A DNA stretch of 64,000 nt from an uncultured Gemmatimonadota bacterium (lineage in GTDB: Bacteria > JAAXHH01). Below are positions 2,189-62,763 of this stretch, piece by piece. The stretch is taken from assembly GCA_951812955.1 (NCBI GenBank), contig OX638340.1, positions 1,152,001 to 1,216,000 of the forward strand. The letters run 5' to 3'. A model generated the notes under the pieces. It searched no databases, had not been told where the DNA came from, and saw only the letters and a list, made by a program, of their open reading frames with translations. Numbering within the stretch: the stretch's first letter is position 1; every line of letters starts with the position of its first letter. Made by a program: the position numbers and the translations under genes.

Positions 2189-2321
2189 TTACGGCTCATT
2201 TCCTGGTAATTCGTTTACGATTTGTTCCCTGGCACGGATTGACTTGGCCGTTCTCGCCAGGTAGTATGTATGATACTGCGTTTTGCGGTAGTTGACAAGA
2301 TGAAGGTGAACCGGGAGTCCC

Positions 2322-8009: not shown

Positions 8010-9815
8010 CTACTGCGGTTTTTTGAATCTGCGATCGATCTCCTCGAGCGGCATGCGTACCACAATGGGCCGTCCGCCGGGCGTCACGTAGGGCATTTCC
8101 GTGGCGAACAGGTCGTTGACGAGCCCGTTCATTTCCTGCTGGGACAGCGCGTCGCCCTTACGGATTCCGGCATGGGAGGAGAAGGTAAGGGCGATTCGTT
8201 CTTCCGCCTTCAGGGCCTTCTCCGGTTGTTCCTGCAGGTTCTCAATCATTCTGTGAAACAGCGTATCCACGCCCTGGTTGCTGGCCATACAGGGTACGGC
8301 GTCGACGACCACGGTCTGCTCGCCGAACAGTTTCAAACTGAATCCCAACTTGCCGAAATGATCGAAGTGTTCCTGGACGAGCGCGATCTGGGGAACCATG
8401 AGATCCAGGGTCACCGGGAACAGCAATTGCTGGGAGGGGGCGGATTCATGGGCCATCGTATTCAGAGCCCGTTCGAACAGCACTCGCTCGTGGGCGGCGT
8501 GCTGGTCGATCAGCATGAATCCGTCTTTAACCTGGGCCAGGATATAGGCGTTGTGCAACTGCCAGAGCGATACCGTTTCGCCATCGTTACTCTCCCTGAC
8601 CGCTCCCTGCCCCTCTTCGTCACGCTCCCCTTGCTCCGCCGCCGCCGGGGTATAGGTCCACTCGCCCGAATGGTTCCCGTCGCGGTTTGTGGCGCCGAAC
8701 AGGTCGATCTGGGTCCTTCGATTCACGGCCGATCCCGGATCCGGCGCGGTCGCGCTACCGGGCGCCGCGGCCGGCGTCATCTCGGAAACGTCCGGCGTAT
8801 CCGTCTCGAAAACAGGAACCACGTCCGAGTTCTGAAGCGCCAGCCGAATGGCCCGCAACAGCCGCTCATATACCCTGGATTCGTCGGAGAACCGGACCTC
8901 GCGCTTCGCGGGATGTACATTGACGTCCACCTGGTCGAGGTCGATGTTCAGGAAAATGATGGATACGGGATACCGGTCCCGGGGAAGGATGGAACCGTAC
9001 CCTTCGTACACGGCGTGGTTCAAGGCGCGACTGGACACCGGCCTGAGGTTGATGAACAGATACTGGTGGGTACGGGAAACCCTGGCGGCGTCCGGTCGAC
9101 TGATGAACCCGTGTATCTTGACGAGTTCGTCTTCGAAAGTGACCGGTATCATCTGGTTCATGAGCGTGTTGCCCATGACGGCCTGCGCGCGGGTATAGGC
9201 GTTGGACACGGCGGGCAGGGAAAGGGTATCCCGTCCGTCTACCGTCAGCGTGAAAGCGATATCGGGATAGGCCATCGCCGTCGTGGATACCACGGAGACA
9301 ATATGGCGCGTCTCCGTAGCCGTCGTCCGCAGGAACTTCCGGCGGACGGGTACGTTGTAGAACAACTGCGACACGGCGACCGTCGTGCCCCGGGCCCGTC
9401 CGGCGTCGGTTACCCGCGGAGGCGCCCCCCCGTCGATGCGAACCCGGGTCCCCGCCGTCTCCTCTTCCGCTCGGGACGTCAGGTCCACCCTGGCCACGGA
9501 GGCGATGCTGGCCAGCGCTTCGCCGCGGAAGCCGAAAGTTCCGATGCGATAAAGATCGTCTTCACTGTCGATTTTGCTGGTCGCATGACGCTCGAAGGCC
9601 AGCACCGCGTCCTCGCGGGACATGCCCCTACCGTTGTCCATTACGCGAATGAGTTGCTTCCCGCCCGACCTGACCTCCACGGAAACACGCTGGCCGTCGG
9701 CGTCGATGGCGTTCTCTAACAGCTCCTTTACGACCGAGGCCGGCCGCTCGATCACCTCGCCCGCGGCGATCATGTTCGCCAGCTTCCCGGGGAGCACCTT
9801 GATTTTATCGGCCAT
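8010..9815 (-). CDS. mutL: DNA mismatch repair protein MutL
   Basis: N-terminus MADKIKVLPGKLANMIAAGEVIERPASVVKELLENAIDAD is the canonical MutL GHKL ATPase. Confidence 0.9.
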   Translation of the reverse strand: MADKIKVLPGKLANMIAAGEVIERPASVVKELLENAIDADGQRVSVEVRSGGKQLIRVMDNGRGMSREDAVLAFERHATSKIDSEDDLYRIGTFGFRGEALASIASVARVDLTSRAEEETAGTRVRIDGGAPPRVTDAGRARGTTVAVSQLFYNVPVRRKFLRTTATETRHIVSVVSTTAMAYPDIAFTLTVDGRDTLSLPAVSNAYTRAQAVMGNTLMNQMIPVTFEDELVKIHGFISRPDAARVSRTHQYLFINLRPVSSRALNHAVYEGYGSILPRDRYPVSIIFLNIDLDQVDVNVHPAKREVRFSDESRVYERLLRAIRLALQNSDVVPVFETDTPDVSEMTPAAAPGSATAPDPGSAVNRRTQIDLFGATNRDGNHSGEWTYTPAAAEQGERDEEGQGAVRESNDGETVSLWQLHNAYILAQVKDGFMLIDQHAAHERVLFERALNTMAHESAPSQQLLFPVTLDLMVPQIALVQEHFDHFGKLGFSLKLFGEQTVVVDAVPCMASNQGVDTLFHRMIENLQEQPEKALKAEERIALTFSSHAGIRKGDALSQQEMNGLVNDLFATEMPYVTPGGRPIVVRMPLEEIDRRFKKPQ

Positions 9816-9837
9816 GTAGCACGCGCGTCCCTGTGGC

Positions 9838-10980
9838 TCAGTTGTCGTGAGTGATCCGGTAAATCATTCCGGCGTAATCGTCTGATACGAGCAGGGATCC
9901 GTCCGGCATGACCTCCACGTCGGCCGGACGCCCGTATACCTCCTCGTCCTCGAGCCAGCCCGCGGCGAAGTCTTCGTACCCCACGGCCTCGTTGCCATCC
10001 AGGCGCACGAGGGTGATCCGGTACCCGATCTTGCTGTCCCGGTTCCAGGATCCGTGCTCTGCAATAAACACCTGGTGTCGATACTCGGACGGGAACATGC
10101 CGCCGGTGTAGAAACGCATACCCACCGCCGCGACGTGCGGGCCGAGTTCCTGCGCGGGCGCCACCATGGAATCAAGTGGACGTTTGCCGCCGAATTCGGG
10201 ATCCGGAACGCCGATGCCGTGGTGATAGGGGAAGCCGAAATGCTGACCTGATTCGGTCACGCGGTTCAACTCGTCCGCCGGAATTTCGTTCCCCATGAGG
10301 TCCCGCCCATTGTCGGTAAACCAGAGTTCGCCGGTCGCCGGATGCCAGTCGAAGCCCACGGTATTTCGCACGCCGCTCACATAGACTTCCAGGTCCGATC
10401 CGTCCGGGTTCATGCGCATGATGGTCGCATAACGCGGATCAGAGCGCTCGCAGACGTTGCACGGTGCGCCCACGGGAACGTACAGCTTGCCGTCGGGGCC
10501 GAAGCGGATGAACTTCCACCCGTGATGACGGTCGGACGGAAAACCCCCGTTGACCACGACGGGTTCCGGTGGATCTTCCAGGCGGTTTTCGATGTCGTCG
10601 TACCTTAGAACCCGGCTGACCTCGGCGACGTAGAGCGCTCCGTCACGGAACGCGACGCCGCTCGGCATCCTGAGCCCGCGGTCCAGGACGATCACCTCGT
10701 CGGCGGCGAAGTCCCCGTCCCGGTCCCGAACGGCGTAGACGTTCCCTGCGCGGCGGGAACCGACGAAGAGGGTGCCGCCGGGTCCCATGGCCATCGCCCG
10801 CGCATTTTGAACGCCCTGGGCGTAAACGGCGATCCTGAAGCCTTCGGGCAACCGGATACGGGACAGGAGCGGATCGGTTTCCGGGTTACCGGCTCCAGGC
10901 GCGGGCGTAGTTCCACACGCGGCGGCCATCAGGAAGACCGGCAGGAAGAGGCATGTTAAACAAAGGCGGATTGGGGTCAT
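9838..10980 (-). CDS. PQQ-dependent soluble sugar/aldose dehydrogenase (YliI/sorbosone dehydrogenase family), lipoprotein
   Basis: Beta-propeller glucose/sorbosone dehydrogenase motifs. The signal peptide with a lipobox Cys starts at internal Met ~10980; the ORF extends to 11076. Confidence 0.65.
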   Translation of the reverse strand: MTPIRLCLTCLFLPVFLMAAACGTTPAPGAGNPETDPLLSRIRLPEGFRIAVYAQGVQNARAMAMGPGGTLFVGSRRAGNVYAVRDRDGDFAADEVIVLDRGLRMPSGVAFRDGALYVAEVSRVLRYDDIENRLEDPPEPVVVNGGFPSDRHHGWKFIRFGPDGKLYVPVGAPCNVCERSDPRYATIMRMNPDGSDLEVYVSGVRNTVGFDWHPATGELWFTDNGRDLMGNEIPADELNRVTESGQHFGFPYHHGIGVPDPEFGGKRPLDSMVAPAQELGPHVAAVGMRFYTGGMFPSEYRHQVFIAEHGSWNRDSKIGYRITLVRLDGNEAVGYEDFAAGWLEDEEVYGRPADVEVMPDGSLLVSDDYAGMIYRITHDN

Positions 10981-23057: not shown

Positions 23058-25418
23058 TTACGCAAGATCGGGACCGGCCAGTCGGTAACCGACCCGAGGC
23101 TCGTTAGAGATGTACGTCGGGCTTCCCGCATCATCACCCAGTTTGGAGCGGAGTTTCTTCACGAAAGCATGCACAACCCGGTTGTCTTCGGAACTTCCGG
23201 ACCGCCATACGTTGCGCAACAAATAGTCGTAAGTCACGACGCGGCCGGCGTTGGTCGCAAGCACGCGTAGTAAATCGTATTCGGTTGCGGTCAGTTTCAA
23301 AGGTTCGTCCGCCAGGGTCACCCGTCGTTGCTCGAAGTCGATGACGAGATCAATCACCCGGTAGGGCTCGGGTGGACCGGCATGCCTGCGAAGCGCCGAC
23401 TGGATTCTGGCCACCAGTTCCGTAGGCGAATACGGCTTGACCACATAATCGGCTGCTCCGATCTCCAGAGCTTTGGCAATTGTCTCGTCTCTGCCATACG
23501 CGGACAGGAAGATAACCGGCTGATCAGCCATGGCCGGCACGCTTTGCATCAGTTCGATACCGTCCGCATCCGGGAGCAGCAAATCCAGTAGTACCAGATC
23601 CGGTTGACGTGATTTAATCAGACCGGGTACGTCATTGGGATTGCCGGTCACCAGCGCCTCGAAACTCGCGTCCTCGAGTATACCCCGTATCTGTTCCAAC
23701 ACCTGTGGGTCGTCATCCACCACAAGGACCAGCGGCTTCTGCCGATTTCCCGTGTCCGGGAGTCTTTGCCTCATGAAGGAGGGCAATTCGATCATGGCCG
23801 GCGCTTCATCCGCCACAGGTATCGTAAATGTAAAACGTGTGCCTAGACCGTTACCTTCGCTCTCGACCCAGATACGGCCGCCATGCGCCTCGACAAGTCC
23901 CTTGCAGATGGCCAGTCCGAGGCCCTCCCCAACCCCGCGTCCGCGATCTTCCCGTCCGCTTCGGGCAAACTTGCTAAAAATGTGCGGCAGACGCTCTGCG
24001 GGAATCCCTCGCCCTTCATCGACTACCGAAACCGCTACGAACAACCCCTCGCGTTGCGCAAGTACCTGTATGACTGACGATTCTGGCGCGTGGCGGGTAG
24101 CGTTGGACAACAGGTTGATCAGGACCTGAACTATGCGCTGCCGGTCCACCCGCACCCGAGGCAGATCAGTAGGCAGGTCAATACTGATCTGGATACGGCT
24201 CTCACTACTGAGAAACATATTCCGAGCCTGGTCCACAATGGCAGCCAGATCCGAGTACTCGGGGGATACCGACAGCGATCCCGTCTCGATATGAGCCGCG
24301 TCCAGCAGGTCGCTGATCAACTGTCTCATGTGATCGGCCTGGTCGTTGATTATGCGGAAAAGCTGCCGGGTCTCGGCCGGGTCCAGCACCGACGGGGTCT
24401 CTAGCACGGTGGCGGCACAGCCCTTTACAGAAGTCAAGGGAGCCCTGAGCTCGTGACTCACCAAGCTTAAAAACTCGGCCCGCATTCTTTCAAGTTCTTC
24501 TATCGGCGTCATATCCTGTAAGGTAACAACCAAGGACTCGACTTCTTCCTGCGGTGAACGTATAGGCGTTGCGTTGACCAGTATCGTGACCTTCCGGCCG
24601 TCCGGAACCTCAAGTACGATCTCTTCGGCGCGAACCGGTGTGGCCTCGTTCAACGCCTCAACCAATGCGGACTTCTCCAGGGCAATCGCACGCCCGTCGG
24701 TTCGCCGCGCACTCATCACGTCCAACAAATCCTCGGCGGTGTTTCCCGGTGTCATGAGATTGCCGACAATGCGTCGCGTCTCCTGGTTAAGGGATACCAA
24801 CTTGCCACTTTGGGCGTCAATTACCACTACACCAACCGGAGACGTGTCTATCAGGGCTTCCAGGTCGGCCCTGACCCGTCGCTCATCGCCGTGCCTGCGG
24901 GCGTTTGCGATCGCCGCCCCGGCCTGCGAAGCGAACAGCGACAGCATCCCTTCATCCTCACCCGTAAACCCCTGATCGGACACTTTTCCAACGAGACTGA
25001 ATATGCCAACATGCACGCCTTGATGCCGCATGGGCATGCCCAGGTAACAACCAGCCAGTACAGGGTCCGCCGGGAACCCTAACGAGGCAAGGTGAGTCGC
25101 TAGTTCCTTGAGCCTTAGTGGACGTTGGACCTGTCGAAAAAACTCCCACAGATCGTACCCAAAAGGTAGATCTGTCAGCCGCCTGTATTCTTCGGGGCTC
25201 ACGCCATATGTGACAAAATCCTGCAGGCTGCCCGTTGCATCCATTGTACAGATTGCGCCGTATTCCGCATTGGTCAACAAGCATGCGTTTTCCACGACCT
25301 CGTGCAAGACGGTTTTGATATCAAGGCTTTCGCTGATACGCACACTTGCCTGACTTAGACCTAAGAATCGCTCCTTGAGCGATTGTATCTCCGCTTGCAA
25401 CTCTTCGATTTTGGACAT
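23058..25418 (-). CDS. Fused sensor histidine kinase-response regulator (GAF-PAS-HisKA-HATPase-REC-OmpR wHTH)
   Basis: H-box FLSLVSHELRAPLT, N/G boxes, receiver LVVDDDP...DLVLLDLLLPD and OmpR-type C-terminus (TATEYDLL...VGYRL). GC is lower than the flanks. Confidence 0.8.
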   Translation of the reverse strand: MSKIEELQAEIQSLKERFLGLSQASVRISESLDIKTVLHEVVENACLLTNAEYGAICTMDATGSLQDFVTYGVSPEEYRRLTDLPFGYDLWEFFRQVQRPLRLKELATHLASLGFPADPVLAGCYLGMPMRHQGVHVGIFSLVGKVSDQGFTGEDEGMLSLFASQAGAAIANARRHGDERRVRADLEALIDTSPVGVVVIDAQSGKLVSLNQETRRIVGNLMTPGNTAEDLLDVMSARRTDGRAIALEKSALVEALNEATPVRAEEIVLEVPDGRKVTILVNATPIRSPQEEVESLVVTLQDMTPIEELERMRAEFLSLVSHELRAPLTSVKGCAATVLETPSVLDPAETRQLFRIINDQADHMRQLISDLLDAAHIETGSLSVSPEYSDLAAIVDQARNMFLSSESRIQISIDLPTDLPRVRVDRQRIVQVLINLLSNATRHAPESSVIQVLAQREGLFVAVSVVDEGRGIPAERLPHIFSKFARSGREDRGRGVGEGLGLAICKGLVEAHGGRIWVESEGNGLGTRFTFTIPVADEAPAMIELPSFMRQRLPDTGNRQKPLVLVVDDDPQVLEQIRGILEDASFEALVTGNPNDVPGLIKSRQPDLVLLDLLLPDADGIELMQSVPAMADQPVIFLSAYGRDETIAKALEIGAADYVVKPYSPTELVARIQSALRRHAGPPEPYRVIDLVIDFEQRRVTLADEPLKLTATEYDLLRVLATNAGRVVTYDYLLRNVWRSGSSEDNRVVHAFVKKLRSKLGDDAGSPTYISNEPRVGYRLAGPDLA

Positions 25419-29050: not shown

Positions 29051-29388
29051 CAGAGACCGAGGTAGTAGCTGGATCGACCGATCGAGAGCGTCCTGCGAAT
29101 CCGGGTGACCACGAGACCGTCTACTGAGGGCGTAATTGGTGGCGCCACCTGTGAATCCGCTTGGGATGAACCTAGTGTTCCGCGGCTGACTGAATGATAG
29201 ATTTACCCGAATCGGCTTCCTAAAGGACTTGGAGCTTGAACTCACGGGTGAACAGACGGCGTTTCAGAGTCATGAAGCGCCTCCTCGATCGGTAGGAAGC
29301 TTAACTCTGTCTCCCAGTCAAGGGTGCGGTACGATTTAACGTAAACTGACAGATGAGCCTGCAACAATCAACAAGAGGCAAGGAAACC

Positions 29389-32181
29389 ATGCCCTTGATT
29401 TACATTCGTGCCATACCCGTGTTCATATGTCTTGTATTGTTCACTCTGACCACCTGCGGCAAGGACAGCCCCACCAGACCGAAGCCGCCAGATCCACCGC
29501 CGCCAGTAGTGCCCGTAGCCACCCGCATTGACATCACTCCGCCTTCTGCCACGTTGAACTCGGTTGGCCAGACTATTCAACTCAACGCAAGAGTCCTGGA
29601 TCAGAACAACGCGCCAATTAGTGGCGCAGCCGTGACATGGACCAGCAGCGACAACGGCGTGGCTACCGTCACCGTCCAGGGGTTGGTAACTGCGGTAAAG
29701 AACGGCACGGCACGGATCACAGCCCGATCAGGTAATATCTCTGCAAATGCGAATGTCACTGTGTTACAGACAGCCGGTAGTATCGTTATCGAATCGGCTA
29801 TGACGACGCTAACAGCCATCGGTCAGACCGTCCAGCTGACGGCGAATGTACTGGATCGTAATGACAAGCCGGTAGCCGGTGCTGTCGTGACCTGGACGAG
29901 CAGCGATGCGTCCGTAGCAACGGTCAACGAACAGGGGTTGGTGACGGCCGTCAAGAGTGGCGGCACACGGATCACGGCACGGTCAGGCAGCGCCTCAGCA
30001 GGCATCACTGTTACGGTAATGCAGTCGGTAGCAAGTATCGTGATAGAGCCTGAGATGGCGACGCTCATGTCGATCGGCGAGACCGTGCAACTCACCGCCA
30101 CCGTTCTAGATCAGAACCGGCAACCAGTAGATGATGCCGTCGTCACCTGGCAGAGCAGCGATGAGGAAGTGGCCACCGTAAGCGCTGCAGGACTCGTTAC
30201 CGCCATCGGCAACGGCATGGCAACTGTCACCGCCAGATCAGGCAACGCCTCGCAGACGGCAACCTTGACTGTGACGATCCTTGATACACGACGCGACCGA
30301 GAAGCCCTTGCCGCACTGTATCATAGTACGGATGGACCGAATTGGACCAACAACACGAACTGGCTGAGCGATGCGCCTCTAGACTCATGGCATGGCATAG
30401 GAACTACCACACTTGGAGAGGTTCAGTATCTGAATTTGGGGGAGAACAATCTCCACGGCATCATCCCACCTGAAATAGGCAAACTTCAAAAACTGACAGT
30501 ACTGGCGCTCTACGGCAATAGTTTGACCGGCAACATCCCGCCCGAAATCGGACAGTTACAGAACCTGACAGATCTTAATCTCGGCGACAACGAGTTGAGC
30601 GGCCCTATCCCCACTGAAATAGGGCAACTTCAAAAACTGACAGGTCTTACTCTCGCCGGCAACCAGTTGAGCGGTCCAATCCCCCCTAATATAGTGCAAT
30701 TGCTGGAACTAAAATTCCTGTGGCTCGGCGGCAACCAGTTGAGCGGTCCTATCCCCACTGAAATAGGGCAACTTCAAAAACTGACAACTCTATGGCTAGG
30801 CGCTAATCAACTGACCGGCAACATCCCGCCCGAAATCGGACAGTTGCGAAACCTTACTGACCTAAATCTTGATTTTAACCAGTTGTCTGGATCCATACCC
30901 CCCTTAATCGGACAACTACAGCATCTGAAATTCCTGCGGCTGAATGGCAACCAGTTGACTGGATCCATTCCGCCCGAAATCGGACAGCTTAGCATGCTTA
31001 GGTTCTTGAACATGGCCTTCAATCCCAATCTTTCGGGGCCATTACCGGTAACAATCACCTCTCTTTCCAACATGGAATCCCTGAGTTTGCACTACACTCA
31101 AGTATGTATTCCTCCTACCGCCCAATTCCAGTCATGGTTAGACGGGATAGAAAACATAAGAGGCGATATTTCTAGCTGTCCAGGGCCAGAGGGACCAGTG
31201 GAACCGGAAGAACCGGAAGAACCGGAAATGCCGCCTCCTGTCGGAGAGCGTCTGGACGTGAGGATTGTTTATTTTGTTCCTGCAAATCATACTGGATACC
31301 CGAACATAGATGCCAAGATAGATTCGTTGGTCAACATCGTCAAATTGACTTATGCGGAGATATTTGAATTTCATGGCTTCGGCGATAGAACCTTTCAGCA
31401 CGAGCAAAATGCGGATGGCACGGCCAGGGTATATCATGTGAAGGGCCAATACGATGGCGAATACTATTCCAGCGAAACATTTTTTAAGGTTATACATACC
31501 GAATTGGAACAGATATTCGATTTAGAATCGAATATTTACTGGGTCGTATTGGATGCTATCGATGCAACTGTAGATGGTTATTGCGGGCAAGGGTATGGTG
31601 ATCTTCCTGAGGGCGGCGCGTTTTTAATACCCGGACCAAACGACTACTGGTTGGAGGATCGCGGGTGGAGTTGTTTCAACCCATCAGTTGCATCCCACGA
31701 AATCGGACATTCCTTTGGTCTAACCCATGACCTGCTCAGAGACGAAGTGCGTGTCGAGTCCTCATATCAAGATGACTGGATGATTACTTCGTATTGTGCC
31801 GCCGAATGGATGTCGGTACATCCATTCTTCACCGGCGAACCAACCACGGGGAATGACAATGAGGGTGAAATAAGTCTAAGGTCGATTTCTGATGCTTCAT
31901 CCGAGACTATCCGCCTGGTTTTCGATGTGAGCGACCCCGATATGCTGCACCAGGCTCAACTTCTTGATAGAAACGGAGAAACGATAGCCTACCGTGGATT
32001 GGAAGGCGAAAGCGCTACCGTTGTGTTTGAAACCGACCAGGTATCCTACGGCGATCAGATCTTGTTACGAACTATAGATAAACGTGCCTTTGTTGTTGAA
32101 GGCAAGTTCATTATAGATCGAGATGGGCCTATAACAGTAAGACAATTACAAACGGGGCGACCCTTCAAGCCACAGTATTAA
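29389..32181 (+). CDS. Surface lipoprotein: 4 x Big_2 Ig-like domains + ~9 plant-type LRRs + C-terminal matrixin-like zinc metalloprotease domain
   Basis: Lipobox LTTCGK and a four-times repeated Big_2 pattern (VATVxxxGLVTAVxxGxARITARSG). There are 24-aa LRRs (LxxNxLxGxIPxEIGQLQxLT) and HEIGHSFGLTHD (HExxHxxGxxH). The start is trimmed to Met 29389. Confidence 0.75.
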   Translation: MPLIYIRAIPVFICLVLFTLTTCGKDSPTRPKPPDPPPPVVPVATRIDITPPSATLNSVGQTIQLNARVLDQNNAPISGAAVTWTSSDNGVATVTVQGLVTAVKNGTARITARSGNISANANVTVLQTAGSIVIESAMTTLTAIGQTVQLTANVLDRNDKPVAGAVVTWTSSDASVATVNEQGLVTAVKSGGTRITARSGSASAGITVTVMQSVASIVIEPEMATLMSIGETVQLTATVLDQNRQPVDDAVVTWQSSDEEVATVSAAGLVTAIGNGMATVTARSGNASQTATLTVTILDTRRDREALAALYHSTDGPNWTNNTNWLSDAPLDSWHGIGTTTLGEVQYLNLGENNLHGIIPPEIGKLQKLTVLALYGNSLTGNIPPEIGQLQNLTDLNLGDNELSGPIPTEIGQLQKLTGLTLAGNQLSGPIPPNIVQLLELKFLWLGGNQLSGPIPTEIGQLQKLTTLWLGANQLTGNIPPEIGQLRNLTDLNLDFNQLSGSIPPLIGQLQHLKFLRLNGNQLTGSIPPEIGQLSMLRFLNMAFNPNLSGPLPVTITSLSNMESLSLHYTQVCIPPTAQFQSWLDGIENIRGDISSCPGPEGPVEPEEPEEPEMPPPVGERLDVRIVYFVPANHTGYPNIDAKIDSLVNIVKLTYAEIFEFHGFGDRTFQHEQNADGTARVYHVKGQYDGEYYSSETFFKVIHTELEQIFDLESNIYWVVLDAIDATVDGYCGQGYGDLPEGGAFLIPGPNDYWLEDRGWSCFNPSVASHEIGHSFGLTHDLLRDEVRVESSYQDDWMITSYCAAEWMSVHPFFTGEPTTGNDNEGEISLRSISDASSETIRLVFDVSDPDMLHQAQLLDRNGETIAYRGLEGESATVVFETDQVSYGDQILLRTIDKRAFVVEGKFIIDRDGPITVRQLQTGRPFKPQY

Positions 32182-54369: not shown

Positions 54370-57174
54370 ATGATACACCGTAGGTTTATTTCCTGGATTG
54401 CGCTTGCGCTGTTTGCTCTGGTCTCGACCGATGCCATCGCACAGCAAGATCAGGAAATGGAAGAGATCGATTTCGTCGCCGAAGAAGTGACCGTTACCGG
54501 TTCCCGCATCAGGGGCGAAGCCGCAGAATCTACCGCACCCGTTATAATCCTCGCTAAAACACAGATTCAGGAGTTGGGGCTCGCGTCCATCGGCGACGTG
54601 CTCCAGACCCTGACCGTCCAATCCAACGCCATCAACACCCAGGCCAACAACGGCGGAGACGGATCCACTCGGATCAGCCTTCGCGGACTGGGCTCTACCC
54701 GAACATTAGTACTGGTCAACGGCCGCCGTTTCGTGCCGGGCGGCACCGGGGCGAACTCGTCCGTCGATCTGAACTCCATACCCGCGTCCGTGATCGAACG
54801 AATCGAGGTGCTTAAAGACGGCGCCTCGGCCGTGTATGGTTCCGATGCCATCGGAGGTGTCGTAAACGTTATTACGCGGTCCGACCTGGAAGGCGTGGAG
54901 TTCGAGTACTACCAGGGCGTTTCGGGCGCGGGCGACGGTGACGTGATCGACGCGAGCATAACCGCCGGCTTGCGAAGCGGCCGGGGGAGTATCCTGTTCT
55001 CCGCCGGGTACCACAACCGCAAACCGGTCTGGACCGGCGACCGCGATTTCAGCGCGGCGGACAAGAGCTATGACTGGGGTGCGAACGACGGAACCTTCAC
55101 CACCAGCGGCAGTTCGGCCACGCCCGAAGGAACCATTATCGACCGTTTGGGTGAGGAGGGCAACGCGGCCTGGCAGGCGATTGTTGACAGGGCCGGGGAA
55201 GACGCTGGAGTCTACTTTAACGCACCATCCGGTGGGTGGCGTCCCTTCAACTTCTCGGGAAACTCGCTGGACGGGACAGGCGACCTGTACAACTACCAGC
55301 CGGCGAACTACCTGTACACGCCGCAGACAAGGTACTCCGCGTTTCTAAGTGGCAATTACCTTTTCAACGATAATCTGAGCGGGTTTTTCGAGGTGTCGTA
55401 CACTAACCGGCAATCGGACCAGAAGCTAGCGCCGACTCCTCTGTTTATCTTCTTCGAAGATGATGTCTCGGTGTCAGAGGAAAACCAATACAACGAATAT
55501 GGCCGCGACTTCTTGGACGTCCGACGGAGATTCGTCGAAGCGAGCAACCGCAACTTCCTGCAGGACCTCGACACTTACCGGATCGTCCTCGGACTGGATC
55601 ACGAATTCAGAGGATTTACCGGAGACCTGGCCTTTTCCTATGGCCGCACCAGCGGAACCAACATAAACGAGGGCCGGTTCATCCTGAGCAATGTAAGGAA
55701 AGCGCTGGGACCTGATTCGGAGTGTGTGGCGCCCTGCGTACCCCTCGACCTGCTGCACGGGCCCGGTACAATCACGGAGGATATGCTTAAGTACATTCAA
55801 TACACCGGCATCGCCAGGGGTTATACGAAGCAGAGAATCCTGCAGTACAACCTGACCGGTGACCTGTATGAATTGCCGGCGGGACCCCTTGCCGTGGCCG
55901 TAGGTGCATCGTCCAGGTGGGAAGCGGGTGGCGCTATTCCCGATCCCATTACCGCCACGGGCAACACCACGGGCAACAAGGAAGAAGCGACCGAGGGCGA
56001 CTACTCGGTCCGCGCAGTTTACGCCGAGACCAGCATTCCTGTGTATCAGAACGAGATGGGCGGCCTGGACATTACGGCCGCGGGCCGTCTTTTCAACTAC
56101 GACACCTTCGGTACGGACTTCACGTACGAGGCGGGCGCCCGGCTCGAACTCCCACGGGGCCTGGCCTTCCGTTCGACCTTCTCAAAGGCATTTCGTGCAC
56201 CGAGCGTCGCCGAGATGTTCCTGGGACAGAGCGACAGCTTCCCGCTGGTCAGCGATCCGTGCAGCGTCGTGGACGAGGCCGGCAACCCGCGCAACCTGTC
56301 TTCGCAGCAGAGGAGCAACTGCGCGTCCGCGGGGGTACCTGCGGATTTTGAAGACACCAGGGCACAGCTCAGGGCCCGGATCGGTGGCTCCACCGATCTC
56401 GATCCCGAACGAGCCAACACGGTCACGGCCGGCGTGGTGTACCAGCCCGAGTTCATGGAAAACCTCGATGTCGCAGTCAGTTACTACGCCACAAAGATCG
56501 AGGACGAAATTGGAGCACTCGGCGCGGGTCTGATCCTGAGCAACTGCTACTCCCAGGACAGCCCGACGGACTGCGACAAAGTCCAGCGTGACCAGAGCGG
56601 AGTGATCAGAAACATCTTCTCGACCGCCACCAACATCGGCGAGACGGAAACCAATGGGCTGGACTTCGAACTGAATTACTTCGAAGACACGCCCCTCGGC
56701 CTGCTCTCGGCACGGCTCGAATCCAATTACCTCTTCGCCTACGACGTGTACCTGCCCATACCGGGTGGTTTCGAACTGGTCCAAGGCAGAGGGTATTACG
56801 ACCTGGGTGTGTACCCCACCTGGCGGCACAACGCCAACGTCGGGTTGAAGTGGAGCCGCACATCGGCGGGTGTGACTTGGCAGTACACCGGTGGATTTCA
56901 GGAGTGCGAAGACGATGACTGCAAGGGCCTGTACCGCGACGACGTCGAAACGTCCCCGACGGTCCGGGACGTGGATGCGAACCACCTCTTCGGCATCCAG
57001 GGGTCCTACCGGTTGTTTTCACGGGCAGGCGGCTCCATAATAACGGTCGGTGTCAACAACGTGTTCGACACGGCGCCCTCGGTGATCTTCAACGGGTTCC
57101 TGGGCACGTCTGACGCGTCGACGTACGACTTTCTGGGCAGGTACCTGTACATCCGTCTGTCCCACTTTTTGTAG
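54370..57174 (+). CDS. TonB-dependent outer-membrane receptor
   Basis: Signal peptide, TonB box/plug (VTGSRIRGEA...), TBDR barrel and C-terminal aromatic. Confidence 0.85.
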   Translation: MIHRRFISWIALALFALVSTDAIAQQDQEMEEIDFVAEEVTVTGSRIRGEAAESTAPVIILAKTQIQELGLASIGDVLQTLTVQSNAINTQANNGGDGSTRISLRGLGSTRTLVLVNGRRFVPGGTGANSSVDLNSIPASVIERIEVLKDGASAVYGSDAIGGVVNVITRSDLEGVEFEYYQGVSGAGDGDVIDASITAGLRSGRGSILFSAGYHNRKPVWTGDRDFSAADKSYDWGANDGTFTTSGSSATPEGTIIDRLGEEGNAAWQAIVDRAGEDAGVYFNAPSGGWRPFNFSGNSLDGTGDLYNYQPANYLYTPQTRYSAFLSGNYLFNDNLSGFFEVSYTNRQSDQKLAPTPLFIFFEDDVSVSEENQYNEYGRDFLDVRRRFVEASNRNFLQDLDTYRIVLGLDHEFRGFTGDLAFSYGRTSGTNINEGRFILSNVRKALGPDSECVAPCVPLDLLHGPGTITEDMLKYIQYTGIARGYTKQRILQYNLTGDLYELPAGPLAVAVGASSRWEAGGAIPDPITATGNTTGNKEEATEGDYSVRAVYAETSIPVYQNEMGGLDITAAGRLFNYDTFGTDFTYEAGARLELPRGLAFRSTFSKAFRAPSVAEMFLGQSDSFPLVSDPCSVVDEAGNPRNLSSQQRSNCASAGVPADFEDTRAQLRARIGGSTDLDPERANTVTAGVVYQPEFMENLDVAVSYYATKIEDEIGALGAGLILSNCYSQDSPTDCDKVQRDQSGVIRNIFSTATNIGETETNGLDFELNYFEDTPLGLLSARLESNYLFAYDVYLPIPGGFELVQGRGYYDLGVYPTWRHNANVGLKWSRTSAGVTWQYTGGFQECEDDDCKGLYRDDVETSPTVRDVDANHLFGIQGSYRLFSRAGGSIITVGVNNVFDTAPSVIFNGFLGTSDASTYDFLGRYLYIRLSHFL

Positions 57175-57207: not shown

Positions 57208-60018
57208 TTGGCAAACGGACGAACATTGCTGCTGGCGGCGGTTTTATTCGTCGTACCGACCAACACCGGGACCTTCGCCCAGGACGCCGACAACCCGGAT
57301 TCCGTTCAGGTCGACTATGTCTTTGACGAACTGACGGTGACCGGGTCCCGGATCCGGGGCGAGGCGGAAGGCTCTACGGCCCCGGTAGTCATCCTGGCTC
57401 GCGAGGATATCCAGGCCAAGGGGCTCGCCTCCGTGGGGGACGTCCTCCAGTCGCTCACGATCCAATCCAACGCCACCAATACCCAGGCCAACTACAGCGG
57501 CGACGGGGCTACCCGTATCAGCCTCCGCGGCCTGGGCGCCCAGCGGACCCTGGTCCTGGTCAATGGCCGCAGGTTCGTACCCGGCGGCCTCGGCGCGGAC
57601 GCAGCAGTCGATCTCAACTCCCTCCCATCCACCGTCATCGAACGGATCGAGGTGCTCAAAGACGGAGCCTCCGCGGTCTACGGTTCCGACGCCGTGGGCG
57701 GTGTGGTCAACGTCATCACGCGTTCGGACCTGGACGGCGTGGAGTTCGAGTCCTACCAGGGCATATCGGGCGCCGGTGACGGCGTGGCCATCGACCTGGC
57801 CTTTACCGCGGGCCTCAGGCGAGACCGGGGCAATATCCTGTTCTCCGCCGGATACCATGACCAACGGCCGGTCTGGACCTACGAGCGCGGTTTCAGCGAA
57901 TCCGACAAGAACTACAACTGGGCGAAGAACGACGGGACCTTCACTACGAGCGGCAGCTCGGCGACGCCTGAGGGCCATATCGTCGACCAGTCGGGCGAGG
58001 CGGGCAATGCCTCGTGGCAAGTGATCAACGCCGCCGCTGGTGACGGCGCCGGGGATTTTCATCTGGATTCATCCACGGGCTGGCGTCCCTTCAGCTACGC
58101 GGGAAACTCCCTGGACGGCACCGGTGACCTGTACAACTACCAGCCCGAGAATTACATATTCACGCCACAAAAGAAATACACCACGTTCCTCAGCGGCACC
58201 CACCGGTTAAGCGACCGGCTGCGTCCGTTTTTCGAGGTGGTGTATACCAACCGGCAGTCCGAACAGAAGCTCGCGCCGACCCCGCTCTTCACCATCGAGG
58301 AAGGCACCACGGTGTCGGCGGGCAACCGGTACAACGAGTTCGGGCGGGACTTCGTGGATGTCCGCCGGCGTTTCGTGGAGGCCGGCAACCGCGTCTTCAA
58401 ACAGGACCTGAGCACATTTCGAATTGTACTGGGACTCAGGAGTCGACTGGCGAACTTCGACTCGAACGGGTTCTTTGCCTTCGGGCGCACATACGGAACC
58501 ACGGTCAACCGGGGCAGGTTCATCCGAAGCAACCTCATGAAGGCCCTGGGTCCGGACGAGGAGTGCACGGGAAGCTGCGTGCCGCTCGATATCCTGCACG
58601 GCGCCGGGACCATCACGCCGGAGATGCTGGCCTACATCCAGTACACCGGCGTGGCCCGGGGATACACGCAGCAGAAGATCCTGCAGTGGAACCTGGCGGG
58701 CGACCTGGCGGATCTGTCCCACGGACCGCTATCCGTTGCCGCGGGTGTTTCCTCGCGCTGGGAGTCCGGCGCCTATACGCCCGATCCGGTCACGGCCTCG
58801 GGCAACACGACCGGATTCCGATCCGAAGCGACCGAGGGAAGCTTCGCGGTACAGGCGTTGTATGGCGAGACCCGGCTGCCGGTTTACCACCGGAATGGCG
58901 TCGGATTCCACCTGACCGCGGCGGGGCGGGCGTTTCACTACGACACCTTCGGTTCCGGCCTGACCTATGAAACCGGGGCCAGTGTCGAGCTGCCAAGTGG
59001 GCTGGTCCTTCGCGCTACCTATTCCAATGCCTTCCGGGCCCCCAACATCGCCGAAATGTTTCTCGGCGCTAACGACGTGTTTCCCCTGGTGAGCGATCCA
59101 TGCAGTAGGATAGACGAAGGAGGCAATCCGCGTGTTTTGACTGCGCAGCAGCAGCGGAACTGCGCCGCCGCGGGCATCCCGTCCGGTTTCAGGGACTCCA
59201 GGGCCCAGCTTCGTGCCCGGGAAGGCGGGTCCACGGACCTCGATCCGGAAAAGGCGGGCATGATCACGGCAGGTATGAGCTTCCGCCCCGAGTTCGTGCC
59301 GGATCTCCGACTCAACCTGAACTACTACCGGAATCGCATCGAGGACGAGATCGGATCGCTCCCAGCGGGCGTCATCCTGAGCAATTGTTACTCGCAGGAC
59401 AGTCCTACGCATTGTGACCAGATCGTTCGGGATACCGGTACGAAGTTGATCTCCCACATTGTTCAGACCAATTCCAACGTCGGCGAGACCGAGACCGCGG
59501 GAATAGACATGGAGGCGTCGTACAACGCGAACACCTCATGGGGCATATTGTCGGCGCGGCTGGACTCCAACCTGCTGATCGAGTACGACCAGTTCCTGCC
59601 CTCGGCCGGCGGCACGGAAGTAATCAAGGCCAGGGGATACTACGACGTGGGCGTGTTCCCCCGGTGGCGCCATGCGGCCTCGATGGACCTGAAGTGGCGG
59701 CGCGCTTCGGCGGGTCTCACGTGGGAATACATCGGCGGTTTCGTGGAGTGCGAAGACAACGACTGCAAGGGGCTGTACCGTTCAGACGTCGTCGAAACGC
59801 CGGCCTACAGGGACGTGGAGTCCAACAGCGTGCTTGGTCTCCGGGGGACCTACAGGATTTTTACGAGGGCAGGCGGCACCGCACTGACGATGGGGGTGAA
59901 CAACGTACTCAACCATCCTCCCGCGGTGATATTCAACGGGCTGCTGGGCACTTCGGATTTCTCCACCTACGATTTCATGGGCAGGTATCTGTACTTGAGG
60001 ATTTCGCACTTTCTGTGA
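57208..60018 (+). CDS. TonB-dependent outer-membrane receptor (tandem paralog)
   Basis: Similar to the upstream receptor along its whole length. Confidence 0.85.
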   Translation: MANGRTLLLAAVLFVVPTNTGTFAQDADNPDSVQVDYVFDELTVTGSRIRGEAEGSTAPVVILAREDIQAKGLASVGDVLQSLTIQSNATNTQANYSGDGATRISLRGLGAQRTLVLVNGRRFVPGGLGADAAVDLNSLPSTVIERIEVLKDGASAVYGSDAVGGVVNVITRSDLDGVEFESYQGISGAGDGVAIDLAFTAGLRRDRGNILFSAGYHDQRPVWTYERGFSESDKNYNWAKNDGTFTTSGSSATPEGHIVDQSGEAGNASWQVINAAAGDGAGDFHLDSSTGWRPFSYAGNSLDGTGDLYNYQPENYIFTPQKKYTTFLSGTHRLSDRLRPFFEVVYTNRQSEQKLAPTPLFTIEEGTTVSAGNRYNEFGRDFVDVRRRFVEAGNRVFKQDLSTFRIVLGLRSRLANFDSNGFFAFGRTYGTTVNRGRFIRSNLMKALGPDEECTGSCVPLDILHGAGTITPEMLAYIQYTGVARGYTQQKILQWNLAGDLADLSHGPLSVAAGVSSRWESGAYTPDPVTASGNTTGFRSEATEGSFAVQALYGETRLPVYHRNGVGFHLTAAGRAFHYDTFGSGLTYETGASVELPSGLVLRATYSNAFRAPNIAEMFLGANDVFPLVSDPCSRIDEGGNPRVLTAQQQRNCAAAGIPSGFRDSRAQLRAREGGSTDLDPEKAGMITAGMSFRPEFVPDLRLNLNYYRNRIEDEIGSLPAGVILSNCYSQDSPTHCDQIVRDTGTKLISHIVQTNSNVGETETAGIDMEASYNANTSWGILSARLDSNLLIEYDQFLPSAGGTEVIKARGYYDVGVFPRWRHAASMDLKWRRASAGLTWEYIGGFVECEDNDCKGLYRSDVVETPAYRDVESNSVLGLRGTYRIFTRAGGTALTMGVNNVLNHPPAVIFNGLLGTSDFSTYDFMGRYLYLRISHFL

Positions 60019-60056
60019 GCGGCCGATCACCTTTGCTGGGGTTGAATTCCACTGCG

Positions 60057-61409
60057 TCAAGTGTGTGGATCTGTTTCGACCTGTCGGGAATCCACCTTGG
60101 TCTGATCAGTATCATCACTACTATCTATTGGTGGAGGCGGTGGAATCCACTTGCGCAAATTTTGTCCAACCCTGTCATAGAAGCCCGGTATTGCTTTCTC
60201 CAGCTGGTCTATAAAAGTCGACCTGCCTGAAAAACGACCTCCAGGATCAGTGATTATAGCAACTTCAAAATAAGTCAAGTTGACGTCTGGCTGGTCGATT
60301 TCAAGGCAGGCCGGATCGGCTTGTACTTTGGTTAGTACCGCCTGCGTGGATAGATTCCGCCTGGACCAGAAAGTACGAATAAAGATATCACTTGTCTTCG
60401 TGTCGGGTAGTTGCCGGAGAAGCCAGTTTATCTTGGATCGAGAACGCTTCCTGTCACCAGGAGCCTGCAGTCTCATCGAACACGAGATTGTTCTTCTTTG
60501 AAGATTTACAGCTACTTCCAAATCGCTGGCTGCATTGGGGATGTCAAAACCTGATCTCAGTTCGTAGGCGCCAACAAGATCATCGCAAGCTTCCTGAAAA
60601 CGTAGCGCCGTGTTACTACGATGTTTACGTGGCAGGCGGATGTCAACCCGTTTGCCAATCTGGCGAGTCAGAATCAAGCAGACGTCTCTTTCTTCCTGGT
60701 GCCAGCTCGCTACTGTGTATTCTACTTCCGGTGATGTTTTTTTAAAACTTTCTCCTCGTTTGATTCCCGAAACCAGGGATTGCCATTCTCGATTCATCTT
60801 ATCGAATCGTTTGACGCCGGAGTTGACATGTTCGAAATACCGCACCATTTCTTCCAGTATAAATCGCTGTTCCGGACTTAAGTCTTCACTGTCCTTCAGT
60901 GTCAGCATGGCTTGAGTGCGAATGCTTGTCCAGGAAATGTGGTAGAATTCGATTTTCCTGCTTAAAGGCTTTGGAATAGAGTATGGAATATGAGTTGGTA
61001 GTGGAACCAGTTGATTCGACAAAGTGATTACCGCATTGAGCCCGAAATTCTGCGCCGCCTTGCCATATCTCAAGACCTGATCACCATCAATCTCCGAATT
61101 GCCAACTTTCGCCTCGAAAAGGGCTGACCAACGGACTTTGCTACGATTCCTCAGAATCAACAGGCCATCCGGTCTGTCGTTCTGTTTGGCGTTTGGATTT
61201 GGCAAACTTACTTCTGTGAAACTGTCCACTATGGACATTTTCCCCACTCTGACACCGCAACTTTCCAGAAGGTTTGCGGTAAATGGTCGCACCGACCCTA
61301 AAACGGCCAGCAGAATGGATACCAATCGCATCTCCTGGCTGGATCTTGCCACGTTCGGGATCAATCTCGCACTGTTGGCCTTGTTCAGGACGTCATCCAG
61401 GGAACTCAT
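60057..61409 (-). CDS. Hypothetical protein with N-terminal PD-(D/E)xK-like nuclease motif, low-GC gene
   Basis: ...RPDGLLILRN...SALFEAKVG... fits D-(x)n-ExK. GC is about 47% versus about 63% in the flanks. Confidence 0.4.
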   Translation of the reverse strand: MSSLDDVLNKANSARLIPNVARSSQEMRLVSILLAVLGSVRPFTANLLESCGVRVGKMSIVDSFTEVSLPNPNAKQNDRPDGLLILRNRSKVRWSALFEAKVGNSEIDGDQVLRYGKAAQNFGLNAVITLSNQLVPLPTHIPYSIPKPLSRKIEFYHISWTSIRTQAMLTLKDSEDLSPEQRFILEEMVRYFEHVNSGVKRFDKMNREWQSLVSGIKRGESFKKTSPEVEYTVASWHQEERDVCLILTRQIGKRVDIRLPRKHRSNTALRFQEACDDLVGAYELRSGFDIPNAASDLEVAVNLQRRTISCSMRLQAPGDRKRSRSKINWLLRQLPDTKTSDIFIRTFWSRRNLSTQAVLTKVQADPACLEIDQPDVNLTYFEVAIITDPGGRFSGRSTFIDQLEKAIPGFYDRVGQNLRKWIPPPPPIDSSDDTDQTKVDSRQVETDPHT

Positions 61410-61506
61410 TCCGTCTCCTAGATTAAGCGGAATTACTATAGAGTTTACTTTGTATTGTAATTACACATCGATAAGATAATCCGCCTGTGGGTATATCCCA
61501 CAAATT

Positions 61507-62763
61507 TCAACCAAACTCAGGCCGGTCTTTCCTGTCGTCGTCTGTTTCCTTTGGTGTCGAAGGTGGTTCTTCTTCGCCGTTAACGGAGTCAGAGCCTGAG
61601 GATTCCTTTGCTTCTGATGTCGGTTTCTCGTCGGATTCGATTTTGGATCCGTCCCGATTCTCTTTATCATCCTTTTGATCAGGCTCCCTATCCTGGCTGG
61701 ACTCACCTCCGCTCTTTTCACGCCTGTTCGAATCAGTGCCCCCTTCGCCATCGTCGCCTACGTCGTTCTCGCCCGATTTCGCGTCATCCGCATCCGGCTC
61801 CTCCGAGTACCCCATCTCCGCGTCATAGTCGTAGATGAATTCGTCATCGTCAGGCCAGTAGTCGCGGCCGGTCCGTTGCCCGGTACCCGGAGACGACCCA
61901 CGCGGAAGCGTCGGTGTGTCGGGCTCGTCCGTAGTCAGCGCGGGTTGTTCCTCGTCCCCTCCATCGTCGCCTCCACCACCGTCATCGTCGCCATCATCCT
62001 CTTCTTCAGCCTCTTCCGCTTTCTTTCTACTCCTGCCGATCAGCGCGGCAATACCCATGCTGATGAAATACAGCACTACAAGGGGAATCGCTACCAGGGT
62101 CTGCGTGTAGGGATCTCCTGTGGGCGTGATTACGGCGGCCGCTATAAATATGACCACCAGGGCGATACGCCACACCCGCTTCAGCACACTGGCGTTCAGG
62201 ATGCGAAGCCAGGTCAGAAACGCAACCACCGCCGGCATCTGGAACACGATGCCCATGATCAGGACCATCTTGTTTACAAGTCCGACATAGAACCCGATAT
62301 CCCACTGGGGCTTTATGTCGGGGACATGCAGCTGAACAAAGAAGCGGACCATGACCGGGATCAGTACATAGAAAGCGAAGGCTGCGCCGGTGAGGAAAAG
62401 CACGCAGCAGAAGAAGATAACGATGGGGACATACTTCTTCTCTCTATCCAGCAGACCGGGTGATACGAATATCCACAAGTTATAAAGCACGTAGGGCAGT
62501 GCGAAGGCGAAGCCCAGCAGCAAAGAGATGTTCACCTTGGCCGTAAACATGCCGGCCGGCCGGATGGCCTGGATCTCGATCTCGGTCTTCAGGTTTTCCT
62601 GGAAGGTCGGAGAGAGGAGGAAATTGATGATGTAGTCGGCGAAGGTGAAGCAGAGGACCATGCCGACCAGAATGGCGAGTACGGATTTCAATATGGCCCG
62701 GCGAAGCTCTTCGAGATGTTCCAGAAAGGACATCTCGCCGCTGCGGCCTTTCGCTGGGGACAT
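61507..62763 (-). CDS. tatC: Twin-arginine translocase subunit TatC with ~170-aa acidic low-complexity C-terminal extension
   Basis: Six-TM TatC core (MSFLEHLEELRRAIL...). The tail is rich in D/E/G (EEAEEEDDGDDDGGGGDDGGDEE...). Confidence 0.8.
   Translation of the reverse strand: MSPAKGRSGEMSFLEHLEELRRAILKSVLAILVGMVLCFTFADYIINFLLSPTFQENLKTEIEIQAIRPAGMFTAKVNISLLLGFAFALPYVLYNLWIFVSPGLLDREKKYVPIVIFFCCVLFLTGAAFAFYVLIPVMVRFFVQLHVPDIKPQWDIGFYVGLVNKMVLIMGIVFQMPAVVAFLTWLRILNASVLKRVWRIALVVIFIAAAVITPTGDPYTQTLVAIPLVVLYFISMGIAALIGRSRKKAEEAEEEDDGDDDGGGGDDGGDEEQPALTTDEPDTPTLPRGSSPGTGQRTGRDYWPDDDEFIYDYDAEMGYSEEPDADDAKSGENDVGDDGEGGTDSNRREKSGGESSQDREPDQKDDKENRDGSKIESDEKPTSEAKESSGSDSVNGEEEPPSTPKETDDDRKDRPEFG

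Follow-up and report, generated by a model that had tools for sequence, protein, structure and literature searches.

A solitary, horizontally exchanged PD-(D/E)xK nuclease gene in a variable slot beside tatC of an uncultured Gemmatimonadota bacterium: a candidate single-protein defence system

The 64,000-nucleotide stretch analysed here (positions 1,152,001 to 1,216,000 of contig OX638340.1, assembly GCA_951812955.1; hereafter the window) comes from an uncultured bacterium whose TatC relatives place it in the Gemmatimonadota, and near its end it carries a low-GC gene for a 450-amino-acid (aa) protein with an N-terminal PD-(D/E)xK (restriction-endonuclease-fold) nuclease domain. It was found that this gene is exchanged as a cassette of about 1.5 kb and that, in the Gemmatimonadota lineage of the window, divergent functional alleles of it are swapped at one fixed site, the junction between tatC and a gene for a TonB-dependent receptor. 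The reading that we favour, to which we assign a probability of roughly 45% on the basis of sequence comparisons and a structural model, is that the protein is a solitary, horizontally exchanged nuclease that most likely serves as a single-protein defence or conflict system.

The assignment to the PD-(D/E)xK nucleases was evaluated in three sets of relatives: a close set of 40 homologues, a diverse set of 74 members with 28-74% identity, and a set of actinomycete relatives fused to a TerD domain. The residues P80-D81-G82 and E99-A-K101 do not vary among the 40 close homologues. Residues E26, D81, G82, E99, K101, Q111, Y115, H157, W160, W209 and W236 are invariant in the 74 diverse members, with P80 nearly so, and in the TerD-fused relatives P80, D81, E99 and K101 are invariant and G82 nearly so. 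Therefore, the PD-(D/E)xK-like motif pointed out in a first-pass annotation of this DNA is real and not a chance match. An AlphaFold2 model based on the 40 homologues was confident (pLDDT 85, pTM 0.77) and has the alpha-beta-beta-beta-alpha-beta core fold, with the residues of the D...(D/E)xK signature on strands 2 and 3: D81 comes just before strand 82-88 (strand 2), E99 lies within strand 91-100 (strand 3), and K101 follows directly after it. A Foldseek search with this model matched EcoT38I (E 2.8e-4, probability 1.0). We take Q111-xxx-Y115 to be the 'motif IV' of RecB/Cas4-type nucleases, and the pattern of E, D, ExK and QxxxY presumably marks that sub-class. From the conserved active site, read together with the predicted fold, it is natural to infer that the protein is an active nuclease.

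The gene had been called an orphan, which proved incorrect: a word-indexed search returned 428 matches, the best 120 of which have 52-100% identity over 91-100% of the query, and an exhaustive search at E <= 1e-3 returned 1,372 cluster representatives (clusters at 50% identity), with 390 reaching E <= 1e-30. Among the 150 cluster representatives listed, most align across nearly the whole query and have lengths of about 410-620 aa, the others being shorter fragments. Public sources that name proteins of the family always call them 'hypothetical protein', and no paper on this nuclease family was found in the literature. The recurrent sub-threshold library matches among the 74 diverse members were all to PD-(D/E)xK families, namely VRR_NUC (8/74), PDDEXK_4 (4/74) and Mrr_cat (3/74). 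We rate this as an uncharacterised new family of a known kind, with a domain combination for which no description was found in the literature. Only one extra domain was found in the longer members, a C-terminal GYF_2 domain, a proline-motif binder, at residues 500-547 of protein P0131; a conserved PPPP motif ends all members. Together, the GYF_2 domain and the PPPP tail hint at tail-mediated self-association or partner binding.

Homologues were located at 61 loci (designated below by L numbers) in reference genomes of Gemmatimonadota, Alpha- and Gammaproteobacteria, Binatia, Acidobacteriota, Latescibacterota and 'delta' metagenome-assembled genomes (MAGs), with 50-60% identity; Ca. Porisulfidus and the APA, RHO, COS and SB bins are presumably sponge-microbiome MAG sets. 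In 44 of 54 loci the nuclease gene was lower in GC than its flanks by at least 3 points, the median difference being -9 points. Where near-identical copies occur in differing contexts, the homology stops sharply just beyond the open reading frame (ORF), with 50-400 bp of flank. Two copies in one genome (L032 and L042) are 99.0% identical over 1,540 bp, which comprise the ORF, 44 bp upstream and about 70 bp downstream; L016 and L056 are 99.0% identical across 1,864 bp, and L016 and L019 are 97.5% identical across 2,139 bp, and the cassette edges are not the same in these last two pairs. The upstream DNA common to the cassette copies elsewhere amounts to only about 25-45 bp. Because the shared 1,540-bp unit holds only the nuclease ORF, there is no space in it for a partner gene. 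All-vs-all clustering of the ORFs of 64 loci revealed no conserved neighbour beyond the lineage to which the window belongs; seemingly recurrent neighbour clusters were rejected, as almost all of them were shadow ORFs inside the nuclease gene.

There is usually one copy per genome, and about 8 of the 61 loci have copies that are partial, frameshifted or disrupted by an insertion sequence (IS). Inserts of about 1.1-1.4 kb interrupt the nuclease gene in L044 (10697-11989), L054 and L053, and those of L044 and L054 carry an ORF of one repeated (IS-like) family at different positions within the gene. The only clear local duplication was seen in L037, a soil deltaproteobacterial MAG with two full-length paralogues (1998-3767 and 9216-10754) within 7 kb, plus a fragment.

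The junction at which the gene lies in the window was surveyed in relatives picked by TatC and not by the nuclease. In these relatives it is occupied by the nuclease gene in L072 (the TatC of which is 98% identical), by a pair of MNT (NTP_transf_2) and HEPN genes in L073 and L075, and by nothing in L074 (a 45-bp spacer with a GC content of 0.76), L079 and L080. The nuclease gene is also at this junction in the loci L001, L003-L006 and L044. The slot of the window contains 1,488 bp at 47.5% GC, which extend to about 4 bp from the stop codon of the TonB receptor gene. When the window was compared with L044, the flank identity of about 91% halted at 61785, inside the tatC tail, and restarted at 60008; the TonB receptor gene is 95% identical at the nucleotide level over the coding alignment, whereas the nuclease gene is only 67% identical. 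The synonymous divergence (dS) between the window genome (WIN) and L044 is 0.15-0.20 in the flanking genes, whereas for the nuclease alleles, the proteins of which are 67% identical, it is saturated. In the seven genomes compared that have the gene at this site, the flanking genes group the hosts as (WIN, L044, L003), (L004, L005, L001) and L006, whereas the nuclease alleles group as (WIN, L003, L001) and (L044, L004, L005), incongruent with the hosts and with the L044 allele among alleles of distant hosts. The ratio of nonsynonymous to synonymous divergence (dN/dS) of the nuclease was 0.05-0.16 where computable, which is purifying selection. Therefore, from the conflict between host and allele groupings and the low dN/dS, divergent functional alleles have been exchanged at one fixed site. 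Taken together, the GC dip, the cassette copies, the allele swapping and the presence or absence of the gene at the slot bear out the earlier description of a stand-alone, horizontally acquired gene.

As for the other occupant of the slot, the MNT and HEPN pair lies at 7393-8113 in L073 and at 7251-7944 in L075 (the junction corresponding to 60019-61506 of the window), and the upstream sequences of both inserts are visibly similar. For the MNT (NTP_transf_2/Polbeta) protein, a match to the PADLOC candidate PDC-S09 was obtained. What may be a second variable slot was seen beside COX3, past the end of the window beyond SelB/COX3, where L072 has AAA_15/AAA_21 and DUF4276 genes (1-920) and L080 has AbiEi and AbiEii (206-1698).

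A gene with these properties might instead be selfish and mobile, a nuclease gene that resembles homing endonuclease genes or forms a new single-gene transposable unit and that spreads by its own cleavage with no benefit to the host. The abrupt restriction of homology to the ORF and no more than 50-400 bp of flank would suit such an element, but the edges vary between pairs, and no terminal inverted repeats, target-site duplications or recombination sites were found at the window boundaries, at the edges of L032/L042 and L016/L019/L056 or in the upstream alignments. The gene is typically a lone insertion among housekeeping genes, yet the insertion contexts are all different, and hence there is no fixed target site. 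Spread across phyla with a persistently low GC content is also compatible with this explanation, as are the presence, absence and pseudogene states at one site, which are like the gain-decay-loss cycle of homing genes; however, the gene is usually single-copy in a genome, it is not in introns, inteins or phages, and no transposase or integrase was found flanking the duplicated copies. Strong purifying selection acts across the whole 430-aa module, the non-nuclease half included. On balance, we consider the selfish explanation unlikely. Classification as a homing endonuclease gene was rejected in view of the lack of conserved neighbours outside the Gemmatimonadota clade, the intergenic location and the absence from phage records, and classification as an insertion sequence or transposon in view of the missing repeats and target duplication, the variable edges and the mostly single-copy state.

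Several homologues elsewhere have neighbours of interest for the function of the gene. In L065, a type II methyltransferase and restriction endonuclease (REase) pair lies immediately upstream of the homologue; L064 is a prophage neighbourhood; L067-L069 have IS clusters with PIN-Phd, Fic and DruA near the homologue; and L002 has a PemK module. In plasmids of Streptomyces and Rhodococcus, an N-terminal TerD domain is followed by the whole nuclease and C-terminal module, with 26-28% identity and the catalytic residues kept. TerD domains bind Ca2+. These fusion proteins of 663-679 aa, of which WP_159929459.1 is an example, were seen only in actinomycete plasmids, and their genes are again solitary. 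A complete type II cyclic-oligonucleotide-based antiphage signalling system (CBASS), consisting of cyclase, E1-E2, JAB and NucC, lies about 1 kb downstream of the Rhodococcus homologue in L070; a prokaryotic viperin (pVip) and a kinase lie beside the TerD-fused homologue of L071; and RES-Xre modules and polymorphic toxins are also found near TerD-fused genes.

The same neighbourhoods admit a second alternative, in which the protein would be a stress-responsive or toxin-like nuclease that is self-restrained by a fused immunity-like C-terminal domain and that belongs to Ter-type stress or addiction biology rather than acting primarily against phages. The fusion of the whole module to TerD would fit this explanation, although it was seen only in actinomycete plasmids, and the sharing of the slot with an MNT-HEPN toxin-antitoxin pair, the nearby RES, PIN and PemK modules and the resemblance of the C-terminal fold to chaperone- or immunity-type protein binders would fit as well. 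However, no separate antitoxin accompanies the gene, and toxin-antitoxin and defence roles overlap and are hard to tell apart by sequence alone. We regard a primary role in stress or addiction as improbable. Type II toxin-antitoxin organisation was rejected, since the cassette leaves only 44 bp upstream and about 70 bp downstream of the ORF, and among the small neighbouring ORFs (at least 80 aa) none is conserved. A nuclease with a housekeeping role in DNA repair or recombination (NucS- or RecB-like) that is AT-rich by chance would also be under purifying selection, but this explanation is very improbable and largely refuted by the distribution of the gene, with presence/absence polymorphism in close relatives (three empty sites), an allele tree that disagrees with that of the hosts, low GC in most hosts, IS-disrupted copies and no conserved operon partners.

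The favoured reading, a single-protein defence or conflict system, is built on four sets of observations. The predicted fold, the conserved active site and the purifying selection speak for an active nuclease; a classical type II restriction-modification (R-M) or toxin-antitoxin organisation is excluded, there being neither a methyltransferase nor a partner; the presence/absence polymorphism, allele swapping, low GC and pseudogenes indicate an accessory gene; and the slot shared with MNT-HEPN, together with the adjacency to R-M, CBASS and pVip genes in three unrelated lineages, points to conflict biology. The defence or abortive-infection role that had been suggested by the first-pass annotation is thus plausible on the basis of genomic context.

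Other results weigh against this reading. The family is absent from 50,697 GenBank phage records, and a scan of IMG/VR (2.9 M contigs) with two close-clade motif patterns gave no relative, so that the usual vehicles of defence genes were not seen. In a coarse enrichment test, the 150 nearest neighbours of 44 independent loci were compared by Pfam with 136 genes located more than 6.5 kb away, and it was found that the near set consisted largely of genes for metabolism and transport, plus a minority of transposase-type matches, and that defence genes were not clearly more frequent in it than in the far set. Therefore, the housekeeping contexts that had been named beforehand as speaking against a defence role were in part encountered, and the proposed location of homologues in defence islands applies to single homologues adjoining R-M, CBASS and pVip, the nearest neighbours being otherwise mostly ordinary. 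Searches of Pfam, NCBIfam, PADLOC, PHROG and PDB sequences with the single protein and with the 74 diverse members returned nothing significant, and in the C-terminal fold there is no known DNA- or modification-reading domain.

If the protein is a defence nuclease, its N-terminal domain would be a divalent-metal-dependent endonuclease, the predicted active site of which consists of D81, E99 and K101, helped by E26, E66 and Q111/Y115. The target would be a nucleic acid, most probably invading DNA. Because there is no linked methyltransferase, the discrimination of self from non-self would come from the target itself or from trigger-gated activation; that is, self may be spared through modification-dependent, type-IV-like cutting, or the nuclease may be inactive until a trigger is received. 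The helical linker and the YbjN/T3SS (type III secretion system)-chaperone-like domain, a protein-binding type of fold, form a candidate regulatory, sensor or oligomerisation module, and in the fusions observed in actinomycete plasmids TerD may provide an alternative sensory input. Negative frequency-dependent selection could be the cause of the allele swapping at the tatC-TonB slot.

Solitary type IV or modification-dependent enzymes are exemplified by Mrr and MspJI/AspBHI, and cassette-like variation of restriction genes at fixed loci by the immigration-control region of E. coli. By analogy, the nuclease appears to resemble the known solitary restriction-fold nucleases, and the locus appears to behave like the cassette-variable restriction loci of enterobacteria: like Mrr and MspJI/AspBHI, this is a single gene without a methyltransferase, and like the enterobacterial loci it undergoes allelic replacement and presence/absence variation at one conserved junction. 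The differences are that, unlike Mrr, the family matches Mrr_cat only below threshold, and that, unlike type IV enzymes, it has no SRA, winged-helix or other known modification-reading domain that we could find, the nuclease being N-terminal and followed by the YbjN/chaperone-like domain. Membership in Mrr or type IV was rejected because neither an above-threshold Mrr_cat match nor a reader domain was found. Shedu (SduA, DUF4263) is a single-gene defence system in which, as in the protein studied here, a PD-(D/E)xK nuclease is coupled to a variable non-catalytic domain, although a defence role is only proposed for the latter protein. The domain order is reversed, the nuclease being C-terminal in Shedu. 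Shedu was rejected, since the window protein had no DUF4263 Pfam match at E <= 10 and no PADLOC match, and neither DUF4263 nor Shedu models were among the weak matches listed for the 74 members at E <= 0.1. A match to Shedu/DUF4263 or Mrr, for which the first-pass annotation had proposed to search, was thus not obtained with any PADLOC, Pfam or NCBIfam model.

Type II R-M was rejected because there is no cognate methyltransferase, the 1,540-bp unit is the nuclease ORF only and no neighbour is conserved. No methyltransferase family was among the 25 families most often matched by the 150 nearest neighbours, and the sole adjacent methyltransferase, that of L065, is already paired with its own REase. 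Can2/Card1, Cap4 and NucC are sensor-regulated PD-(D/E)xK effectors; unlike them, the protein lacks CARF and SAVED domains as well as a cyclase partner, and the CBASS beside the Rhodococcus homologue has a NucC effector of its own. Assignment to the TerD family was likewise rejected, as PF02342 is absent from the window protein and present only in the 663-679-aa actinomycete fusions; these plasmid homologues are annotated 'TerD family protein' owing to the N-terminal TerD domain, and the part shared with the window protein is the nuclease and C-terminal module. The similarity to AF1548 (PDB 1y88) and EcoT38I is limited to the nuclease core at only 8-14% identity, and the overall architecture differs. 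Similarity to YktB/DUF1054, YbjN/AmyR and T3SS-chaperone-like proteins is at the level of fold only (6-11% identity), and none of these proteins is fused to a nuclease.

The features of the locus are given in Table 1. The ORF that had been annotated at these positions is supported by the ORF listing and by an AGGAG Shine-Dalgarno sequence 5 nt before the ATG start codon. Its GC content is 0.480, compared to 0.59 (z = -3.1; 1.1% of all 1,353-bp windows in the 64-kb window are equally low), and its GC content at third codon positions is 0.49, compared to 0.80 for the TonB receptor gene and 0.68 for tatC. The GC dip noted earlier is therefore real, although the surrounding DNA, at about 0.59-0.66, was put slightly high at 'about 63%'. 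The reported position between tatC and the pair of TonB receptors was correct; as to orientation, the gene is on the same minus strand as tatC, which lies upstream, and is convergent with the second of the two tandem TonB-dependent receptor genes downstream. A simple promoter scan found no sigma-70 site in the 97-bp spacer, promoter and terminator scans at the locus gave no more than the shuffled expectation, and no Rfam family or tRNA was found at the nuclease locus.

Table 1. Features of the nuclease locus, in coordinates of the 64,000-nucleotide window
Feature	Position	Strand	Basis or remarks
Coding sequence of the 450-aa protein	60057..61409	-	Stop codon 60057-60059; ORF listing; M1 aligned with N-termini of 40 homologues; identical protein P0001 in public data
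Inserted segment of 1,488 bp, GC 0.475, filling the tatC-TonB receptor junction	60019..61506	.	Empty site in L074; insert of same length and same GC in L072; MNT+HEPN in L073, L075
N-terminal PD-(D/E)xK (restriction-endonuclease-fold) nuclease domain, residues ~20-175	60885..61352	-	
Catalytic core P80-D81 ... E99-x-K101	61107..61172	-	Conservation in three alignments and model strands
Q111-x-x-x-Y115 in helix 109-121 after the ExK strand	61065..61079	-	Q111, Y115 invariant in 74 diverse members and TerD fusions
Helical linker/bundle, residues 176-282	60564..60884	-	Invariant W209, W236; clade-specific WHQEERD motif; secondary structure of both models
C-terminal alpha/beta domain, residues 283-415, YktB(DUF1054)/YbjN/T3SS-chaperone-like fold	60165..60563	-	
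W-x-P-P-P-P-x-I motif, residues 421-428	60126..60149	-	W421, P425, I428 invariant, P423, P426 nearly (40 homologues)
Disordered acidic tail, residues 429-450	60060-60125	-	pLDDT < 50 at residues 432-450
AT-rich 97-bp upstream spacer	61410..61506	-	Hairpin TGTGGG-ATATA-CCCACA 61486-61502; TATAGT 61435-61440; AGGAG 61415-61419; read from sequence
tatC, 418 aa, with acidic hypervariable C-terminal tail of ~170 aa	61507..62763	-	PF00902 on relatives
TonB-dependent receptor, 936 aa, convergent with the nuclease gene	57208..60018	+	Plug and TonB_dep_Rec on syntenic genes

The TatC tail is of low complexity, especially at 61507-62010, and TatC proteins of about 360-450 aa are common in closer relatives, including several named Gemmatimonadota. 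The tandem TonB-dependent receptor genes (54370-57174 and 57208-60018, plus strand) are paralogues that are about 70% identical, as estimated by aligning them across to the tandem receptors found at related loci; the number of copies in relatives is two or three, with an extra one beside tatC in L003, L079 and L080. A second low-GC stretch lies at about 24.9-33.8 kb of the window (GC about 0.50; the lowest 1,353-bp window begins at 30844) and includes a gene (29353-32181, plus strand) for a eukaryote-like protein of 942 aa that has leucine-rich repeats of the plant type (FLS2 4mn8_A, E 2.9e-141). Eukaryote-like repeat proteins are typical of sponge symbionts. At the edge of this stretch, 23058-25418 (minus strand) encodes a 786-aa hybrid signalling protein with GAF, histidine kinase, receiver and winged-helix output domains, as identified by PDB sequence matches.

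A broader proposal would be that of an unrecognised, widespread family of single-protein immune nucleases (about 1,400 clusters at 50% identity), in which a chaperone-like sensor in the C-terminal half gates a RecB-type PD-(D/E)xK N-terminal domain, the same effector is wired to TerD in actinomycetes, and spread across phyla takes place as a bare cassette of about 1.5 kb, probably within sponge microbiomes, without repeats or recombinase genes. Taken with all of its parts, this proposal is possible but doubtful. If it were true, the long enigmatic TerD/tellurite-resistance domain would be directly linked to nuclease-based defence. Should the protein be found to protect against phages or plasmids, the catalogue of defence systems would gain a compact nuclease system that consists of one gene and has a new domain architecture, and there would be a testable function for about 1,400 clusters that have been left unnamed or 'hypothetical'. 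The TerD-fused relatives would then provide a concrete effector for the study of TerD signalling. Whatever its function, the gene presents a clean natural case in which a very small slot between two core genes is variable, holding a nuclease, a toxin-antitoxin pair or nothing, with alleles swapped among lineages, and this slot is useful for tracing the circulation of accessory genes in unculturable symbiont communities.

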